Below are positions 35,897-43,815 of a DNA stretch of 64,000 nucleotides, piece after piece. The translations under genes and the position numbers were made by a program. A model generated the notes under the pieces. That model did no database searches. It saw only the letters and a program-made list of their open reading frames with translations, and had not been told where the DNA came from. Source of the DNA: a virus. Lineage: Duplodnaviria; Caudoviricetes. Location: positions 3,973 through 67,972 of IMG/VR virus record IMGVR_UViG_3300034685_000067; one strand, 5' to 3'. How positions within the stretch are numbered: position 1 is the stretch's first letter; each line of letters opens with the position of its first letter.

Positions 35897-36583
35897 ATGG
35901 TATATAAATTTAATAAACCAACTAAATATTATGAATATATGGAAAATGATATTTACTCTAAAAATGAAGTAGATGCTCTTGATTTTATTAATTTTGAACC
36001 AAAAATAGGGTTGTCATATGCTAATAGAAGAATCTCTTATTCTATATCTGGTCTTACACTTAATATTGTCAATACACATGTATTTCTTGGAGGTTATTAT
36101 ACTTTAGTTAACGATTCTATAACATTGCCAGCAAATAGTACTGTATATGTATATTTGAATAGAGGAACAAACAGATATACAATAAATATAACATACTCAT
36201 CATCAGCAGAACCAAATGGATTTAATAAAATATGTGTTGCAAGGGTAGTTACATCATCAACTGCTATTACAACTGTAAGTCCATTTGATATATCTCCAAA
36301 TTTGGATATTAGTAATATGGTTTCATTTGCAAAACATACTATGATTATAAATGCTGGTAGTACAAGCACATTATCATTTGCTGCATGTAATTTAATTTAT
36401 AAAGAAAATAAAACATTTTTAGATACAATTATTAAAGTATATATCTTAGATACTTCATCTAACAGATATATAGAAACAAATGATAGTATGTGCTCTCTAT
36501 GGATAAATTCAACAGGTAGTATATTAAATATCACAAACAATACATCACAACAAAAAACATTCGTGATTACAATATTTGGATAA
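35897..36583 (+). CDS. Short paralogue of the preceding tail protein
   Basis: MVYKFNKPTKYYEYME vs MVYKYNKSPEYFEDLE; VFLGGYY...LPANSTVYVY vs VYMDGRLY...LNPNTDNYVY. Confidence 0.6.
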   Translation: MVYKFNKPTKYYEYMENDIYSKNEVDALDFINFEPKIGLSYANRRISYSISGLTLNIVNTHVFLGGYYTLVNDSITLPANSTVYVYLNRGTNRYTINITYSSSAEPNGFNKICVARVVTSSTAITTVSPFDISPNLDISNMVSFAKHTMIINAGSTSTLSFAACNLIYKENKTFLDTIIKVYILDTSSNRYIETNDSMCSLWINSTGSILNITNNTSQQKTFVITIFG

Positions 36584-36624: not shown

Positions 36625-38328
36625 TTGCCAACCACAAAGATAGCTAATAATCAGATGAAAATATTTCCAGATTTGGCATTAAAATCAGGTAGTGTTAATC
36701 AGTTTTCTGATCTAGACTCTACTGGGCCATTAATTGATGATGCTGTTGCAAAAAGGCATGTTCAAAACACAGATTTAGGAACAAGTTCATCTACATTTTA
36801 TATTGGTACAGGTGGTCCAAAGTTAAAGAATAATGGTGGAACTTTAGAGATTGTTACTAATAATGCATCGTCATATGCTGATCTTGTAGTCAACAATTTA
36901 ACTGTTCATGGTTCACAAACAGTTATACATAGTGAAGTAGTTTCTATTGCTGATAATGTAATAGTATTGAATAGTAATTATAGTGGATCATCTCCAACTG
37001 AAAATGGTGGTGTAGAAGTTAAAAGAGGTTCTTTACCAAATGCATCATTGATCTGGAATGAATCTATGGATTTATGGAGAGCAGGATTAGTAAATAATGA
37101 AAGAACATTAGTTAGAGAATCTAATTCTATTACACTAACTGGTGATGTATCTGCTAGTAGCTACTTTAATAATTTGGGCAATATTGAATTATTGGTAACT
37201 GTATTAGATAATTCTCATAATCATACCATAGCTAATGTTACTGGATTGCAAGCTGCATTAGATTCAAAATTACCAAGTACTAATTACAATGCTGCTGATA
37301 TACTTTCTAAATTAAAAACAGTAGATGGTACTGGATCTGGATTAGATGCTGATTTATTGGATGGATATAACTCAAGTGTTGCAGCTGCAGCAAACACTGT
37401 AGTTGTTAGAGATAATAATGGTGTTATTGTTGGTGATTTGAATGGAAATGCTTCTTCTGCATCTAGGTTATTAAATACTATAACTATATCTTTAAGTGGT
37501 GATGTGAGTGGATCTGCATCCTTTAATGGTAGTTCTAATGTAACTATAACAGCACAAGTATTAGATAACTCTCATAATCATACTATAGCTAATGTTACTG
37601 GTTTACAAGCAGCCCTGGATAGTGTATTGAATACAAGTGATTTACATAACATGATATTGTCTATAGATGGAGCAGGGTCTGGAATAGATGCTGATTTATT
37701 GGATGGACAACATGGTTCTTATTATCGAAACGCTAGTAATTTAAATGCTGGTACAATTCATGCTGATAGAGGTGTATTAGCAGGATCGTCTGCATATTCA
37801 TTTCTTAGATATACAGGGTTAGATAATGTAGCGGGTGGATTGAATGGTGGATCTACAGCACCAACTGGTACAAACAGATTAAATTACAGTGGTTATTTTT
37901 ATGCCACAAGAGTATATAATGCAGTATATAATGACTTTGCAGAATGTTTTAATACATCTGTTAAATACCAAACATCTAAGAATAGAATTGTAGAATTTAT
38001 AAATGGTAAAGCACAATTAGCTAACCCCAATTCAGATGCTGTAATAGGTGTTGTATCTGATTCTTATGGTTATATTCTTAATGGTGATGAGGCTGATATC
38101 ATTGCAGGAAGAAAAGTACCAGTGGGTATGGCTGGTACTGTTATGGTTGATGCTGAATATACTGCAAGGGAATCTGATATGGGTTGTTTTGTTTGTGCTG
38201 GATTTAATGGTAAAGCAAGAGTTATACCAAAAGGTGAAGCTTATAAATATGAGGGTAAGATAGTTGGCAAAATTATAGATATAGATTATAATAAAAATCA
38301 GTATAAGATCATTATTTGTCTTAGATAG
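36625..38328 (+). CDS. Tail fibre protein with a C-terminal peptidase-G2-like chaperone
   Basis: N-half paralogous to the 27413 fibre (ALKS.SVNQF, SEVVSIADN, GLDADLLDG, SHNHT); C-terminus paralogous to the first fibre (YATRVYNAVYNDFAE). Confidence 0.85.
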   Translation: MPTTKIANNQMKIFPDLALKSGSVNQFSDLDSTGPLIDDAVAKRHVQNTDLGTSSSTFYIGTGGPKLKNNGGTLEIVTNNASSYADLVVNNLTVHGSQTVIHSEVVSIADNVIVLNSNYSGSSPTENGGVEVKRGSLPNASLIWNESMDLWRAGLVNNERTLVRESNSITLTGDVSASSYFNNLGNIELLVTVLDNSHNHTIANVTGLQAALDSKLPSTNYNAADILSKLKTVDGTGSGLDADLLDGYNSSVAAAANTVVVRDNNGVIVGDLNGNASSASRLLNTITISLSGDVSGSASFNGSSNVTITAQVLDNSHNHTIANVTGLQAALDSVLNTSDLHNMILSIDGAGSGIDADLLDGQHGSYYRNASNLNAGTIHADRGVLAGSSAYSFLRYTGLDNVAGGLNGGSTAPTGTNRLNYSGYFYATRVYNAVYNDFAECFNTSVKYQTSKNRIVEFINGKAQLANPNSDAVIGVVSDSYGYILNGDEADIIAGRKVPVGMAGTVMVDAEYTARESDMGCFVCAGFNGKARVIPKGEAYKYEGKIVGKIIDIDYNKNQYKIIICLR

Positions 38329-38357
38329 TTGACAGTATTTTCAAAATCTATTAGAAT
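38329..38357 (+). promoter_or_regulatory. Near-consensus sigma70/sigmaA promoter
   Basis: TTGACA (38329-38334), 17-nt spacer, TAGAAT (38352-38357); 43 nt upstream of the first radical SAM gene. Confidence 0.75.
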
Positions 38358-38400
38358 TAAACAAAAGCAGATAGTTGTCTTTGGGGAGTGAATTATTAAA

Positions 38401-39495
38401 TTGTTTATAATAGAAAATATTATTACTGAGCAATGTACTCTTATGTGTCGTTATTGTTACATGAATAACAATCCTTTATATATGAGCAAAGAAACATTTA
38501 AAGTTATTCTAGATAATCTAGATAATATATTGAATATATACAATCAATCACAGTATCATCTAGATTTCTTTGGAGGAGAACCATTATTAAACTTCGACTT
38601 AATTGAATATGCAGTTCCACTATTACAACATGATAAAAGATGTGAATCATTTGGTATAATATCCAATCTTCTTGAATTGGATGAAAACAAAGTATCATTT
38701 ATTAAAAATAATAATATAAATGTAAGCTTTAGCTTTGATGGTTTATGGAATGAATATAATAGACCATTAAGAAATGGTACAAGTTCATTACAGTATTATG
38801 AGAAGAAAAAAGACTTGATTAAGATGATATCACCATCTTATTGTAAAACAATGGTATCACCTACTTCATTGGGTACATTGGTTGAAAATGCAAGATATCT
38901 TGCAGATGTTTGGGGTTTTTCAAATATAGATTATTCACTAGTCAGAGATGATATATGGTCAGAAGATGATATCAATAAATTTAAAAATGAGATAAGAGAT
39001 CTATCTAATTTACAGATTGAATTCTTTAAAACAGGTAAAGATGTTATAATTGGATTTTATGAATTATATCTACTTGATATGTTTATAGGATATAAGGATG
39101 GAAAAAGACCATTTGGTTGCTTTGCTGGTAGTAGAGGAATAGGCATTCTGCCCAATGGCGTTGCTTATCCCTGTGCAAGATTTGCTACAAATAGAGAATA
39201 TCCAATTTATGATTTTAATACTAATCATCTTTATAAGGAGAACTTTGATATTTTTACTGATCCTCTGGTATCTAATCCAAGAAACTTTAATAAGTGTCAG
39301 CAATGTACTTATTATGTAGGATGTAATGCTGGTTGCACATATTCTCAAATGAAGAATAATAACAATCCAGTTGCATCTATTTGCAAATTGTATGATATAA
39401 TTTATACAGAATGTTTTTATGTATTTAACAATCTTAAAGATAATAAATTATTTATAGAAAAATTAAATAAACGATTAAATAATCTAGGAGGTTAA
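38401..39495 (+). CDS. Radical SAM/SPASM protein (peptide/protein maturase type), rSAM-1
   Basis: CTLMCRYC, FFGGEPLL, SFDG; SPASM CFAG...YPC...CQQC..CNAGC...C. Confidence 0.92.
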   Translation: MFIIENIITEQCTLMCRYCYMNNNPLYMSKETFKVILDNLDNILNIYNQSQYHLDFFGGEPLLNFDLIEYAVPLLQHDKRCESFGIISNLLELDENKVSFIKNNNINVSFSFDGLWNEYNRPLRNGTSSLQYYEKKKDLIKMISPSYCKTMVSPTSLGTLVENARYLADVWGFSNIDYSLVRDDIWSEDDINKFKNEIRDLSNLQIEFFKTGKDVIIGFYELYLLDMFIGYKDGKRPFGCFAGSRGIGILPNGVAYPCARFATNREYPIYDFNTNHLYKENFDIFTDPLVSNPRNFNKCQQCTYYVGCNAGCTYSQMKNNNNPVASICKLYDIIYTECFYVFNNLKDNKLFIEKLNKRLNNLGG

Positions 39496-39501
39496 ATTAT
39501 T

Positions 39502-39816
39502 ATGTTGGATAACAATGTAATCCAGTTTAATTTATTTAATGCTGTTGAACATATTGTTGAAAGTATGAAGTTTCTTGATTATCTCATTAAGAATGATGAG
39601 GATAGTGGAAGGCAAGAAACATATGCTAATGCAATGTATAATCTTCAAATATGTGGAGATAAACTGTGTGATCTTGGAGAAATATTAATAGGAAATAAGA
39701 TAGTTCTACCTGATAAAGATCAACCAGTTGATCAACAAATTATAGAATATATTGATAAAATTCAGGAGAAAATTAAAATAAGAAAAGAAGAACATCAAGA
39801 TGGAGAACACAACTAA
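39502..39816 (+). CDS. Small helical accessory protein
   Basis: 104-aa ORF with AGGAGG SD between two radical SAM genes. Confidence 0.6.
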   Translation: MLDNNVIQFNLFNAVEHIVESMKFLDYLIKNDEDSGRQETYANAMYNLQICGDKLCDLGEILIGNKIVLPDKDQPVDQQIIEYIDKIQEKIKIRKEEHQDGEHN

Positions 39817-40612
39817 TGTTATTTATATAACCTCAAACTGTAATTTAAAGTGTGAATATTGTTTTGAAGAAGAGAAAAGACCAAATAGAACTATGACATA
39901 TGATGATATAGATAGATATTTTGAAGGAATAGATAAAATATCAGCACCTCATTCTCATATAGTCTTATTTGGTGGTGAACCATTATTATATCCAGATTTA
40001 ATAGAATATATTGTAATAGATAAGATACTTAAACAATATGACTATAAACAATATTCTGTTTCAATGACATCCAATGGTTTGAGATTATTAGAAGATGATA
40101 TTTATAATTGGTTTTTTGATCTGAGAAAAAAGAAATATATACATTTAGAAATAAGTTATGATGGACCTAATTGTTACAGACGTAAGGATAAAAATGGAAA
40201 TTGTGTAAATAATTTAATAGAAAAAGTATTGAACAAATTAAATAATGATAATAGAACTTTTGCCATATCTTATACTTTAAACAAAGATAATTATAATTAT
40301 TGCATTGAAGATGTTATTACATTGTTTGAGACATATGATCATCTGGAAAAAATAATATTAAGTATAGCTAGTCAAGATTTGGATGTTATAGACAATGATT
40401 ATCAAAGATCTGTATTGAGATTGAAACCTTATTTAAATGAGATATATAGAAGATATAGAAAACCCATTTGTGAAGAAGTATGTGATGTATGTCAAAAATG
40501 TGTTTTTAATAATAAGAACTTGTATGCTGTGCCTAATGTACCTTATCCAATAGAACATTCTAAATTTGCAAATGAAGATTTCTCATTATGGGAGTATTGT
40601 CATGAAAGATAA
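39800..40612 (+). CDS. Radical SAM protein with a short Cys-rich tail, rSAM-2
   Basis: CNLKCEYC, LFGGEPLL, TSNG, ISYDG; C-terminal CEEVCDVCQKC. Confidence 0.9.
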   Translation: MENTTNVIYITSNCNLKCEYCFEEEKRPNRTMTYDDIDRYFEGIDKISAPHSHIVLFGGEPLLYPDLIEYIVIDKILKQYDYKQYSVSMTSNGLRLLEDDIYNWFFDLRKKKYIHLEISYDGPNCYRRKDKNGNCVNNLIEKVLNKLNNDNRTFAISYTLNKDNYNYCIEDVITLFETYDHLEKIILSIASQDLDVIDNDYQRSVLRLKPYLNEIYRRYRKPICEEVCDVCQKCVFNNKNLYAVPNVPYPIEHSKFANEDFSLWEYCHER

Positions 40613-41744
40613 ATTATATACCATTTTCATCAATATGACAGATAGATGCAATTTCAATTGTAAATACTGCTTTGAAAAGGATATACATTCTTCTCATATA
40701 TTATCTCAAGATGCAGCAAAGAGTATAACTGAATTTGTAGGAAGATTATTAAATTCTCAATTTTATATATCGAATTACAATGGTATATTGATAAATTTCT
40801 TTGGTGGAGAACCAACTCTTAATCATATGGCCTTAAAATATATAGTTGACTATTTTAAACATAATGATAATATCTTCTTCTCCACTATAACTAATGGCTA
40901 CAAGATAAATATATTACAAGATATATTTAAAGATATCAAAGATTATATGATAAATAATGCATTCAAAACACATATTCAAATATCATATGATGGTTATCCT
41001 GTTCATGATATGACACGTCTTGATGTTAAAGGTAATCCAACTGGTGATATTATCTATAATAATATCAAAACAATGATAAGTGATGGTTATAATATCTCTA
41101 CTAAGTCAGTCATTACTCCAGATACATTTAAGTATATGCCAGAAGCCTATTTGGATATACGTAAACTATTGAATGATCATGGAAATTATTTTCCAACTAT
41201 AGATTATTATACTGAATATGAAAATGGTTATAAATTACAAGAACTTGAAGATGCTCTTTTAGAAATTGCTCCTTATGAAATAGATTACTTTAATCAATAT
41301 CATAAGTTCTTCTTTACATGGTTTGAACCAAATAATAATCATATCTGTGCTGCAGGTAAAGATGTAATAGGTATAGATACTAACTTAAATATATATCCAT
41401 GTGAAGGTTGTTTCTCTAATAATAAAGGGGAACATTTAATAGGAACTATCTTTGAAAAAGATATAATAGATAAATTAATTGAAAGAAAACATTATCATGA
41501 AGAGTTTGAATATAGGACCCCTGTTTGTGTAGATTGTGATACAACTACATGTTTTAAGTGTAATGTGATGAAATATAAAGTTTCATCCAAAAATGACTAT
41601 TTGAATAGATGGTATGATTATACCAATCAAGATTGGTTGTGCACATATTATAAGACAATAGGTAAGATTAAAAGAGCAGTTTTTAATCTTTTAAATAAAG
41701 GAGATGTGTATAATATTGGATCGAAATGTAGACTTGATTCTTAG
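40602..41744 (+). CDS. Radical SAM/SPASM protein, rSAM-3
   Basis: CNFNCKYC, FFGGEPTL, ISYDG; CAAG...YPC.GC...CVDC...CFKC...C. GGAG SD favours the ATG at 40602. Confidence 0.92.
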   Translation: MKDKLYTIFINMTDRCNFNCKYCFEKDIHSSHILSQDAAKSITEFVGRLLNSQFYISNYNGILINFFGGEPTLNHMALKYIVDYFKHNDNIFFSTITNGYKINILQDIFKDIKDYMINNAFKTHIQISYDGYPVHDMTRLDVKGNPTGDIIYNNIKTMISDGYNISTKSVITPDTFKYMPEAYLDIRKLLNDHGNYFPTIDYYTEYENGYKLQELEDALLEIAPYEIDYFNQYHKFFFTWFEPNNNHICAAGKDVIGIDTNLNIYPCEGCFSNNKGEHLIGTIFEKDIIDKLIERKHYHEEFEYRTPVCVDCDTTTCFKCNVMKYKVSSKNDYLNRWYDYTNQDWLCTYYKTIGKIKRAVFNLLNKGDVYNIGSKCRLDS

Positions 41745-42216
41745 AAAGATAGTATATCAATTGTCTCAAGATGATTTAGAAGGAGCATATGATACAGTAA
41801 ACAATAATGTACAATTATTAAATACAGTTGAACCATTCCTTACAGATATACTTTTAATTAGATTGTCTTTGATATTAAATAGAGTTGATAATATAAATAA
41901 TATATTTTCTAAGCTAATAGACATAATAAATACATATAGTCAACTAGATGATAAGACAAAAGAAGTATGGATAGATTTAATATTTTCTACTATTATAATA
42001 TTACTTAAACAAGATTTATCTGAAGAGCAAGAAGAACAACTATATGATGTTCTAATTTCAGATATATCCAATGAATATTACATTACTTTGGGCTTGAATT
42101 ATGCTAATAATAAAGATAATATAGATATAGATTCAGTAATAGATGCCCAAAATGAAGTATTATATGAATATATTAGAAATATGCTTAATTATTATTCTAA
42201 GTATAGGAGAGACTAA
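41704..42216 (+). CDS. Acidic all-helical hypothetical protein
   Basis: 170-aa ORF overlapping the rSAM-3 stop, immediately before the Cys-repeat gene. Confidence 0.55.
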   Translation: MCIILDRNVDLILRKIVYQLSQDDLEGAYDTVNNNVQLLNTVEPFLTDILLIRLSLILNRVDNINNIFSKLIDIINTYSQLDDKTKEVWIDLIFSTIIILLKQDLSEEQEEQLYDVLISDISNEYYITLGLNYANNKDNIDIDSVIDAQNEVLYEYIRNMLNYYSKYRRD

Positions 42217-42218
42217 AG

Positions 42219-42770
42219 ATGGGTACTTTAATTAGAAATATCACTCCACCATGTCCATCCAATTATGGTCCAGGTGGTGATGGACACCCATGTACCAGTA
42301 ATTTGACACCATGGACACAACCATCTGATCTTACCACTGCTACTATTCTAGCACAACATTTAAATGAACTTAGAGATGCTATTAGACGTGAACAAGCTAG
42401 ACGACAGATATCTCAAACAGATTTTGGTGCAAATGTTGCATCTTCTAATTTAATTACAGCAGCACATTGGTCTGCAATTAGAAATGCAATAAATACATTA
42501 AAAACATTTTCATGGTCATCATCTGTACCTACTACAGGTAATATCATACAAGCAGCACAAGCAAACGAATATAGAGCTAAAATAAATGATGCTGAAGACG
42601 ATTGTTTATGTCATTGCAATTACTGTACTTGTAATTGTAATTATTGTACTTGTAATTGCAATTACTGTACTTGTAATTGCAATTATTGTACATGTGTCTG
42701 TAATTATAGATGTACTTGTAATTGTAATTATTCTGATGCAAGGCTCAAATATGATATCTTATATATTTAA
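42219..42770 (+). CDS. Fibre-like protein with a C-terminal (CNYCTCN)n Cys-rich tract and a terminal S74 cleavage motif; candidate radical SAM substrate
   Basis: Three I.A.h.ne.R..I repeats, then 18 Cys in 43 aa, then SDARLKYDILYI-stop; AGGAG SD. Confidence 0.8.
   Translation: MGTLIRNITPPCPSNYGPGGDGHPCTSNLTPWTQPSDLTTATILAQHLNELRDAIRREQARRQISQTDFGANVASSNLITAAHWSAIRNAINTLKTFSWSSSVPTTGNIIQAAQANEYRAKINDAEDDCLCHCNYCTCNCNYCTCNCNYCTCNCNYCTCVCNYRCTCNCNYSDARLKYDILYI
42615..42731 (+). repeat. 21-bp tandem repeat (about 5.5 copies) encoding CNYCTCN
   Basis: TGYAATTAYTGTACTTGTAAT units varying mostly at synonymous positions; one N-to-V change and one Arg insertion. Confidence 0.95.
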
Positions 42771-42802
42771 TATGATTTTAATCAGATAAAACTGGAGTGA
42801 TA

Positions 42803-43093
42803 ATGATGAATGATGAAAATGATTTGGGCTTAAGTTTTATTACACAATTAAAACCATGTATTTTTAAATATAAGAACTGTAATGATAACAGAAAACATAT
42901 AGGATTTATAGCTCAAGATATCTTAAAGTTATTGCCAGAAAATGAATATGCTGTTATTATGAGAGATGAGAATGGATTCTATATGATTAATTATAGTGAA
43001 TTGATTGCACCACTTGTAAAAGCAGTTCAAGAATTAAATATAAAAGTACAAGAATTAGAAGAACAATTAAAAAGATATGGAGATGGTAAATAA
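42803..43093 (+). CDS. Stand-alone peptidase-S74/intramolecular-chaperone body lacking the SDxRLK motif
   Basis: LGLSFITQLKPCIFKYK...HIGFIAQDI...INYSELIAPLVKAVQEL plus coiled coil; own GGAG SD at 42794. Confidence 0.88.
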   Translation: MMNDENDLGLSFITQLKPCIFKYKNCNDNRKHIGFIAQDILKLLPENEYAVIMRDENGFYMINYSELIAPLVKAVQELNIKVQELEEQLKRYGDGK

Positions 43094-43815
43094 TGAGATT
43101 ACTATTTAATGTGGCTGATAGAGGAGATAAGTATGAGGTTATCAGTATAAATACAAATGAAATAGCCTATGCTGGTATGAGAGATGATATTTTAGAAGTA
43201 CCATCATGGGAAGTATATGAGACAGTAGCTAGGAATCTAAATGAAGGTAAAAAAGTATATATACCTAAATTATTAGATCAATTTTTGGATGTCTCTGATT
43301 TAGTAATAGAAGAATTGGATCCATTAGATACTGCTAAACAAACTGCTATAATAAAAGCAAGAGATATAATATATACTACCAGAATTAATAAGTTAGCTAT
43401 AGCAAAATTTTATAGATTTTTTATCCTAAGTCATTACTTTGCTGATAAAGGTATATTTATAACTGATGAAAACAGAGAAAGTAAATATCTGGAAGTTATT
43501 AATTCAGCAGCACAACTGACAGATCCAGAAGCATCTGAAGAAATGATTGCCAATCTTGAAGAGTATATTAATCTGTTAGATAATCTGGCTGAAATAAAGA
43601 ATATTTTAAAAGATTTAGATAAATTTATTGAATCAGTTAATGAAATAACATTAATATCAATGGAAGAATTGGAAGCTAGAGCAAGTTTACAGGGCACTTC
43701 AGAATCTCCTGTAGATCCATTATCAACTAAGATGGAAAATGAATTTGTAACTGAAGAGGAAGCTATTGATGCTGTAAACAATTTATATATAGCATTTGCT
43801 GATCAATATAAATAA
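43093..43815 (+). CDS. Hypothetical acidic protein, possibly fibre-assembly-like
   Basis: 240 aa with TAATG coupling to the S74 gene; LDTAKQTAI helix recalls fibre-assembly proteins (weak). Confidence 0.45.
   Translation: MRLLFNVADRGDKYEVISINTNEIAYAGMRDDILEVPSWEVYETVARNLNEGKKVYIPKLLDQFLDVSDLVIEELDPLDTAKQTAIIKARDIIYTTRINKLAIAKFYRFFILSHYFADKGIFITDENRESKYLEVINSAAQLTDPEASEEMIANLEEYINLLDNLAEIKNILKDLDKFIESVNEITLISMEELEARASLQGTSESPVDPLSTKMENEFVTEEEAIDAVNNLYIAFADQYK

Follow-up and report, generated by a model that had tools for sequence, protein, structure and literature searches.

Radical S-adenosylmethionine (radical-SAM) enzymes are known to build thioethers into whole proteins as well as into peptides. 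In the archaeon Methanococcus voltae, the SPASM enzyme CrpC installs ranthionine links on CrpA, a Cys-rich protein with C-X-X-Q/D repeats, as shown by mass spectrometry, and thioether crosslinking of a whole protein is likewise documented for QhpC and its radical-SAM enzyme QhpD (Dieter et al. 2026, PMC13692751). Here we describe a locus of related make-up in 64,000 nucleotides of DNA from an uncultured member of the Caudoviricetes (IMG/VR record IMGVR_UViG_3300034685_000067, record positions 3,973-67,972; hereafter the window, whose own coordinates are used throughout). Directly after the last tail fibre gene, a close-packed cassette at 38401-43815, all of it on the + strand, encodes three radical-SAM enzymes (rSAM-1, rSAM-2 and rSAM-3), a Cys-repeat protein (F), the remainder of a Peptidase_S74 (S74) chaperone domain (G) and a conserved partner (H). 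On balance, we favour the reading that the C-x-C-(N/D/Q)-C-N-Y units of F are stapled by thioethers, and that F is a protein of the tail-fibre module finished by a chaperone acting in trans.

CrpC/CrpA is the closest characterised case. It resembles the phage locus in placing a SPASM enzyme gene beside the gene for a Cys-rich whole protein, which has a conserved N-terminal part and C-terminal repeats of a Cys motif, C-X-X-(Q/D); it differs, as described, in being archaeal and cellular, with a single enzyme that bears a recognition element (RRE) for RiPPs (peptides that are made by the ribosome and modified after translation), repeats of 17 residues, and neither an S74 chaperone nor a fibre context (PMC13692751). 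QhpD also places its Cys-to-Asp/Glu thioethers in a subunit that is retained in a larger assembly (PMC13692751). That subunit, however, belongs to an enzyme (quinohemoprotein amine dehydrogenase), is bacterial and periplasmic, carries three crosslinks and no repeat array, and depends for its recognition on both a leader and an RRE. PapB/PapA (freyrasin) and CteB/CteA (SCIFF; structures 5WGG/5WHY) have the same SPASM architecture, and their substrates likewise repeat a motif of Cys plus acceptor, but one enzyme acts there on a short secreted peptide that has a leader, whereas the window has three enzymes and a 183-aa protein with a predicted folded domain and a chaperone tail. As regards a RiPP in the strict sense (i.e. 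a short leader precursor, an RRE and a released peptide), the candidate substrate here would fold into a domain of its own, and rSAM-1 has no N-terminal extension, the radical-SAM core beginning right from its start. A preliminary description of this DNA knew of no characterised parallel, a statement that CrpA/CrpC and QhpC/QhpD have since made outdated (PMC13692751). In our literature search, no paper connected a fibre or particle protein of a phage with radical-SAM enzymes, or a virus with thioether crosslinking.

The Cys-repeat family and its radical-SAM neighbours

What first drew attention to F, 183 aa long, was that 18 Cys arranged in heptads fall within 43 of its residues. Counting bears this out for residues 129-171, which comprise six units, five of seven residues and one of eight. 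None of the window's six frames contains a second Cys run of this kind. The DNA of the repeats had also been said to vary mostly at synonymous sites, and within the sample that six units provide, those encoding the same peptide indeed differ only by TGT/TGC, TAT/TAC and ACT/ACA.

F belongs to a large, uncurated family, with 660 database proteins recovered at E <= 0.01 among 711 candidates. It matches no Pfam or NCBIfam family, and its PHROG counterpart, phrog_26958 (3.5e-24), is of unknown function. The unit was characterised across 1,758 units from 213 distinct sequences, using a pattern that preset positions 1, 3 and 5 as Cys and position 7 as aromatic. The resulting consensus is C-T-C-(N/D/Q)-C-N-Y: 78% of units have T at position 2, 93% have N, D or Q at position 4, 87% have N at position 6 and 93% have Y at position 7. 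Successive units are spaced by seven residues (772 cases) or eight (704 cases), the added residue being mostly A or S. With N, D or Q at position 4 and N at position 6, each unit therefore contains two C-X-X-(N/D/Q) motifs.

The N-terminal part of F is conserved, E58, R61 and R62 being invariant or nearly so across 72 sequences. An AlphaFold2 model built on a 72-sequence alignment reaches a pLDDT (the local distance difference test score as predicted for the model) of ~90 for residues ~28-130. The three I.A.h.ne.R..I-type repeats noted in the preliminary description are real and correspond in the model to helices 45-61, 81-91 and 112-127. They form the three helices of one compact single-chain domain, which suggests a self-contained fold with no obvious trimeric coiled coil. 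A homotrimer prediction with three copies of F gave no answer (score 0.00, mark 0.42) and speaks neither for nor against a trimer. Foldseek returned no match to the F model at E <= 0.001. The best VIA matches were a designed filament (Z 7.5) and the three-fold beta-alpha repeat BARA domain 3vp7_A (Z 6.8, rmsd 3.3 over 107 residues), Z values that are too low for a claim of a shared fold. A search for longer proteins yielded 40 F relatives of 322-851 aa; a recognised fibre domain was found in none of these, and they give no help in placing F in the particle.

Variation within the family is considerable. Many relatives carry extra Cys/His-rich C-x-G-H motifs at the N-terminus, in up to ~7 repeats (e.g. 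P0010, P0011, P0029, P0033, P0040, P0069 and P0118), and from their sequence these motifs would suit metal binding at the opposite end of the protein. At least two tandem F paralogues stand behind a single enzyme set in four loci (L002:9383-10531, L012:9923-11067, L064:7713-9962 and L068:7743-9410), and the S-D-x-R-L-K tail discussed below is present in some of these copies and absent from others.

The association between F and the cassette enzymes extends across distant phages. F relatives were sampled in 109 loci, made up of 30 viral contigs, two genome contigs and 77 metagenome contigs. Requiring at least 4.5 kb on either side of F left 36 loci (73 were dropped), and removal of 12 near-duplicates, judged by the first 90 residues of F, gave 24 distinct loci. 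Clustering the loci by BLAST identity was abandoned, since the repeat over-merged lineages and drew 53 loci into one cluster. Some radical-SAM gene of a cassette type lies within 5 kb of F in 23 of the 24 distinct loci. The rSAM-1 and rSAM-3 types are both present within this distance in 21 loci and all three types in 18, compared with seven loci for any of the window's seven other radical-SAM types. The recurring gene order is rSAM-1, a small open reading frame (ORF), (rSAM-2), rSAM-3, F, (G) and H, at F identities of 26-60%. The preliminary description had named as one refutation a family whose members mostly lack adjacent radical-SAM genes; the 21 of 24 loci with both the rSAM-1 and rSAM-3 types are the reverse of this. 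The link between the radical-SAM genes and F is thus well supported as both conserved and paralogue-specific.

There are exceptions. Locus L025 has none of the cassette types, L005 has the rSAM-2 type only and L019 the rSAM-3 type only, and L003/L004 and L008/L009 are without any radical-SAM gene in the 10 kb upstream. A narrower test considered the ORF directly upstream of F in 55 loci, leaving out 42 with short upstream sequence and 11 duplicates: this ORF is rSAM-3 in 23 cases, rSAM-2 in three and a non-radical-SAM gene in 27, and two loci have none. As the 27 include the present lineage, where a helical ORF intervenes, we prefer the 5-kb test.

The cassette enzymes and their closest relatives

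All three enzymes are members of the radical-SAM superfamily, scoring 43 (rSAM-1), 56.6 (rSAM-2) and 43.6 bits (rSAM-3) against PF04055, whose cut-off is 29.5. Each has the N-terminal CX3CX2C motif, at Cys 12/16/19, 14/18/21 and 28/32/35, respectively. For the SPASM domain, we looked for the pattern C-x(9-17)-G-x4-C ... CX2CX5CX3C ... C together with a profile match, and rSAM-1 alone shows both. Its Cys 240, 258, 299, 302, 308, 312 and 328 make up the full seven-Cys pattern, and it passes TIGR04085 (35.4 bits against a cut-off of 27), with PF13186 falling below (18 against 21.5). rSAM-2 has a C-terminal CX3CX2CX2C motif (Cys 224/228/231/234) and matches no SPASM model in the NCBIfam and Pfam profile search. 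rSAM-3 carries Cys 261, 279, 282, 321, 324, 329, 332 and 359, which include the variant CX2CX4CX2C, and no SPASM model is among the 25 matches listed for it.

The top NCBIfam model for all three enzymes is the ranthipeptide maturase PapB (NF047865), with E-values of 4.8e-43 for rSAM-1, 2.1e-21 for rSAM-2 and 1.3e-23 for rSAM-3. The alignments cover positions 8-325 of the 330 in the model for rSAM-1 and 4-307 for rSAM-3, and only 7-220 for rSAM-2. SCIFF, CXXX-repeat, QhpD and other peptide maturases rank next. Among these, rSAM-3 matches the CXXX-repeat maturase TIGR04115 at 4.8e-20 over positions 3-336 of 359, although below the cut-off, and rSAM-1 matches the QhpD model TIGR03906 at 2.6e-17. 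The solved structure closest to rSAM-1 is CteB (5wgg, 4.7e-16), in an alignment that spans the SPASM domain including its cysteines; rSAM-3 matches 8vpo (1.6e-9) and 5wgg (2.9e-7), and the structural matches of rSAM-2 are weak. Following an approach in which enzymes of this kind are profiled by the residues near the catalytic site (PMC10288494), we mapped CteB F112/F152/T186/S210/H363/Q364 by hand, assuming a 3-residue offset, to Y20/F57/S88/S111/A259/R260 of rSAM-1; by this mapping, two of the six positions are identical and two conservative. The profile and structure matches support the view that the cassette enzymes stand closest to thioether-forming SPASM maturases, and by analogy thioether chemistry is the most likely reaction.

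A divided chaperone domain in a tail-fibre module

F ends in S-D-A-R-L-K and six further residues, which correspond to the start of Peptidase_S74. In five fused F homologues the PF13884 profile begins at its position 1, and in one of these, P0032, a residue count made by hand places it at the Ser right after the last Cys unit. The rest of the domain is encoded by G, which matches PF13884 over profile positions 16-55 of 58 (37.7 bits, cut-off 22) and also the C-termini of many PHROG tail fibre families (best 2.6e-16). The S74 domain is therefore present, not as a continuous unit but divided between the tail of F, which holds its start, and G. Reading the sequence by eye revealed no single frameshift that would join the two genes.

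This division is not peculiar to the window. Among the 120 listed relatives for which tail states were counted, 65 have the 12-residue tail, nine are fused, 45 have no tail and one is intermediate, and a G gene follows 33 of the 43 tailed ORFs in loci with room downstream. The F/G split is maintained and is the commonest state of the family. In endosialidase tailspikes and tail fibres, the C-terminus of the fibre consists of the Ser and Lys motif and, after it, the chaperone fold, an arrangement that the fused F homologues keep intact; here and in the 65 tailed relatives, by contrast, the ~12 residues with the Ser and Lys lie on the substrate and the remainder is a separate gene. We take the Ser and Lys of the S-D-x-R-L-K tail to be the catalytic residues of the domain, and a split S74 domain would have to act between chains.

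Some variation around the divided domain was also recorded. In two loci (L068:9411-9923 and L067:1142-1603), the G-like S74 remainder is extended C-terminally by further Cys units, so that here the putative chaperone partner bears repeats like those of the substrate. A contig of RNA library X16 has a 12-base insertion at window position 42729, just 5' of the S-D-A-R-L-K tail. The insertion matches four extra residues in P0001, a database relative that is 94% identical, and the junction between core and tail is therefore variable among close strains.

Because its last 12 residues start an S74 domain and the next ORF matches tail fibre C-termini, F is supported as a fibre-type protein; its designation as a tail fibre or virion protein is suggested by context only. 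The fibre-like character proposed in the preliminary description is thus supported by the tail of F, by G and by the position of the cassette behind a tail fibre gene. The same features bear on another possibility, namely that F is a RiPP-like precursor whose N-terminal domain serves as leader or recognition handle and whose modified Cys core is released against the host or competitors. The conserved N-terminal part (E58, R61 and R62) followed by a repetitive C-terminal core recalls RiPPs and CrpA, a predicted autoproteolytic site stands right after the core, and for CrpC, a section heading of its description attributes substrate engagement to N-terminal protein domains (PMC13692751). However, the S74 domain and the location behind tail fibres point to a structural protein, and searches of Pfam, NCBIfam and PHROG recognised no protease, exporter or immunity gene in the cassette. 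Since the sole predicted cleavage site lies on the C-terminal side of the core, cleavage would leave the core attached to the folded N-terminal domain. We therefore consider a released peptide very improbable.

The remaining features of the cassette are listed with their coordinates in Table 1. The order first described for the genes after the last tail fibre (a radical-SAM/SPASM gene, a small gene, a radical-SAM gene, a second radical-SAM/SPASM gene, a helical ORF and the Cys-repeat gene) agrees with the ORF positions and sizes, and the span 38329-43815 holds two further genes that were left undescribed at that stage, the S74 remainder and the 240-aa ORF.

Table 1. Features of the cassette and the preceding tail fibre gene, in window coordinates.
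Feature	Position	Strand	Assignment
Last tail fibre gene, 567 aa	36625-38328	+	phrog_7389 (4.6e-22); weak Pfam PTR and Peptidase_G2 matches
rSAM-1, 364 aa	38401-39495	+	PF04055, TIGR04085; complete seven-Cys SPASM
Small accessory ORF, 104 aa	39502-39816	+	No known family
rSAM-2, 270 aa	39800-40612	+	PF04055; C-terminal CX3CX2CX2C
rSAM-3, 392 aa	40566-41744	+	PF04055; SPASM-like Cys pattern
Helical ORF, 170 aa	41704-42216	+	Matches no family
Cys-repeat protein F, 183 aa	42219-42770	+	Predicted three-helix domain, six Cys units, 12-residue Peptidase_S74 start
Six C-x-C-x-C-N-Y units, F residues 129-171	42603-42731	+	Presumed substrate core
S-D-A-R-L-K tail and stop	42732-42770	+	First positions of S74 chaperone domain
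G, Peptidase_S74 remainder, 98 aa from GTG 42797	42797-43093	+	PF13884; ATG 42803 preceded by GGAG
H, 240 aa, conserved partner	43093-43815	+	phrog_25260, unknown function (2.2e-9)

The small ORF has no match in Pfam, NCBIfam or PHROG, and its sequence relatives are found in eight close loci only. An ORF of 72-177 aa nevertheless lies directly 3' of rSAM-1 in 11 viral loci, all but two of these ORFs being linked to one another by weak pairwise similarity only. In locus L028 (6194-6523), this position is occupied by an A-type Fe-S carrier (PF01521 Fe-S_biosyn, 9.7e-16), and that phage therefore appears to supply its own cluster-delivery protein for the cassette enzymes. The helical ORF also matches no Pfam, NCBIfam or PHROG family. 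Its relatives are confined to loci L043-L052, close relatives of the present phage, and in most other loci rSAM-3 immediately adjoins the Cys-repeat gene.

A relative of H follows F or G in most loci; some loci carry only the C-terminal half of H and others two copies. The H model (pLDDT 91.9) comprises a small beta/alpha part and a helical bundle. It gave no match at E <= 0.001 in PDB or BFVD and no usable match in the protein atlas, and its best VIA matches (Z = 6.9) are generic helical proteins. Upstream, relatives of the tail fibre gene at 36625-38328 sit 5' of the cassette in many related loci. A promoter-like TTGACA-N17-TAGAAT at 38329-38357 was given no weight alone, since such sites occur at chance frequency (62 in 6.2 kb, against 55.1 +/- 7.8 in shuffled sequence).

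The phage itself is a large, AT-rich, uncultured phage of the myovirus type. Its record comprises 67,972 bases with a CheckV completeness of ~25%, the GC content across the window is 23-35%, and the genes 5' of the cassette include those for the large subunit of the terminase, a tail sheath and a baseplate wedge protein, as well as several for tail fibres. Seven further downstream ORFs, between 48326 and 60813, carry an N-terminal CX3CX2C motif. The DNA runs that contain the stretch are labelled subsurface, which may be its source, and oil field (word shares 0.51-1.00); runs with small word shares were disregarded. In four metatranscriptome libraries from four studies, of sludge, activated sludge and a biogas fermenter, contigs with 90-100% identity cover the region running from the fibre gene through H. 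Examples are a contig of 291 bases over 42306-42596 with zero differences and another of 1,707 bases over 39356-41062; gaps in this coverage at 36000-36300 and beyond ~44400 were left uninterpreted. These contigs are consistent with expression of the cassette, and DNA carry-over into RNA libraries is possible.

Cultured relatives, a proposed model and its rivals

Relatives of the system are found in cultured phages. The rSAM-1 search and a scan of viral contigs led to the CP220 group of Campylobacter phages (Firehammervirus), 15 GenBank records of which contain relatives of rSAM-1 at 34% identity. The same Campylobacter phages encode the F-like protein gp140, again in 15 records, and at the thresholds used gp140 was found in no other GenBank phage record. 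A tblastn search of GenBank phages with F itself gave no match, probably because the repeat was masked. The CP220 gp140, a hypothetical protein of 534 aa, contains seven C-T-C-(D/N)-C-N-Y units and is encoded by a gene in which six 21-bp DNA repeats are annotated as a repeat, and a relative of rSAM-3 lies 2.2 kb downstream. The CP220 group thus resembles the window in having the same Cys unit and relatives of both rSAM-3 and rSAM-1; it differs in the size of gp140, which has no S74 tail and has an additional Cys-containing C-terminal part, and in its dispersed genes. Two records, HE815464.1 and OP654737.1 (CP21_105 and its homologue), label the counterpart of gp140 a 'putative N-acetylneuraminate pyruvate lyase', a name that looks unsupported because Pfam finds no domain in gp140.

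Timms et al. (2010) reported 11-12 radical-SAM genes in the CP220 group, for which they proposed a role in host metabolism, and in CP220 a radical-SAM cluster with an amidinotransferase that is comparable to the downstream group in the window; their account of the genome records the 21-bp intragenic repeat separately and draws no link between the two (PMC2853527). The paper on phage IBB_35 lists 38 virion proteins.

We are now able to propose a model for the cassette, which would be a dedicated protein-maturation set within the tail-fibre module. Newly made F would be acted on by the three radical-SAM enzymes, two of which probably carry SPASM-type auxiliary clusters. Within each C-T-C-(N/D/Q)-C-N-Y unit these enzymes may install sulfur-to-carbon thioethers of the ranthionine or sactionine type; a unit would offer three donor Cys and two C-X-X-(N/D/Q) motifs similar to those that are modified in CrpA. 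G would complete the chaperone fold together with the 12-residue S-D-x-R-L-K tail, the part of this step that is visible being the division of the domain itself. With the help of G, F would then assemble and be cleaved at the Ser, leaving the stapled Cys block as its C-terminal tip. The predicted product is a small fibre-type protein, presumably incorporated into the virion, whose tip would be covalently rigid and insensitive to reduction. More tentatively, phages may in this way staple a protein of their own particle with radical-SAM enzymes, placing up to three thioethers in each 7-8-residue unit (up to 18 here), and assemble and trim it with a split chaperone consisting of a 12-residue tag and a free partner. 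We incline to regard the system as a new viral variant of radical-SAM protein crosslinking, with an unusual split chaperone and the conserved partner H.

Several observations weigh against this model. Firstly, the bit scores fall far short of every curated maturase family: for rSAM-1, rSAM-2 and rSAM-3, respectively, they are 147.7, 76.5 and 83.8 against a cut-off of 340 for the equivalog PapB NF047865, and 92.8, 36.9 and 47.5 against 425 for SCIFF TIGR03974, and for the CrpC family TIGR04463 they are 39.9 (rSAM-2) and 44.3 (rSAM-3) against 525. The enzymes are therefore uncurated relatives and not members of these families, and their reaction could differ. Secondly, a Pfam scan at E <= 0.01 detected no RRE or PqqD-type domain in the cassette proteins, although RRE domains are frequently missed by Pfam. 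Thirdly, the phage is rich in radical-SAM genes, with 11 PF04055 matches in the 68-kb record, so that proximity alone counts for less; it was for this reason that we asked for the closest paralogue of each neighbour. Furthermore, three distinct F-bearing fragments (L003/L004, L008/L009 and L025; 22.7-60.3 kb, 13-33% complete) contain no PF04055 match over their whole length. The parts of the system are dispersed in CP220, whose rSAM-1 relative lies ~32 kb from gp140. Finally, the Cys block and tail of F (residues 132-183) are modelled at pLDDT below 50, and the C-x-C-x-C alternation would also be compatible with a beta-strand on which one face, made up of Cys, serves for metal binding or disulfide formation.

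The distance from the named families leaves room for another radical reaction on F or on a neighbour, such as conversion of Cys to formylglycine, C-C cyclophane links from Tyr, epimerisation or methylation. The matches include an anaerobic sulfatase maturase (1.6e-13) and the cyclophane maturases YhhB (5.3e-11), GrrM and AmcB, the Tyr at position 7 is highly retained, and the hand mapping of rSAM-1 on CteB gives the partial agreement described above. The best-scoring and longest alignments, however, are to enzymes that form thioethers, namely PapB, SCIFF/CteB, CXXX-repeat maturases and QhpD, and the three Cys of each unit do not vary, being part of how the family is defined. A reaction other than thioether formation strikes us as distinctly unlikely.

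The alternation of Cys points to a further explanation, in which the Cys block serves as a structural element that binds metal or Fe-S or is locked by disulfides (e.g. a Cys-lined triple beta-helix nucleated by S74) and the radical-SAM enzymes act on another fibre protein or a glycan, or load the metal. Cys at positions 1, 3 and 5 would share one face of a beta-strand. Units of 7-8 residues resemble the short repeats of the triple beta-helices that S74 chaperones fold, and metal ions occur in the fibre tips of T4. The Cys/His-rich N-terminal motifs of many homologues, the eight further radical-SAM genes downstream in this phage and the F-like proteins on three fragments free of such genes would all fit an element of this kind, and metal binding is the function suggested for CrpA by its authors (PMC13692751). 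Such an element leaves unexplained why F is accompanied in distant phages by three specific radical-SAM paralogues rather than by the other seven types, and why position 4 is N, D or Q and position 6 is N, which are the usual types of thioether acceptor. Metal binding and stapling can, moreover, coexist. We regard a metal- or disulfide-based Cys block as unlikely, if the most serious of the rivals, and retain thioether stapling as the preferred explanation. As cultured carriers exist in the CP220 group, the idea is directly testable.

If true, stapling of F would be the first case in which enzymes crosslink a structural protein of a virus covalently, and a radical-chemistry counterpart to the self-catalysed chainmail of the HK97 capsid. 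Radical-SAM thioethers are known from small secreted peptides, QhpC and, since 2026, CrpA, and their use in a structural protein of a virus would bring RiPP-type chemistry into virion assembly. The maintained division of a chaperone into a tag and a free partner is of separate interest for fibre assembly, and the units, which are short, modular and tolerant of copy number, are attractive as enzymatically stapled scaffolds. More generally, the F family is broad and occurs in many uncultured large phages, the present one coming, by its record, from oxygen-poor habitats. The model would also account for the abundance of radical-SAM genes in the CP220-group Campylobacter phages, which has been a puzzle since 2010 (PMC2853527).

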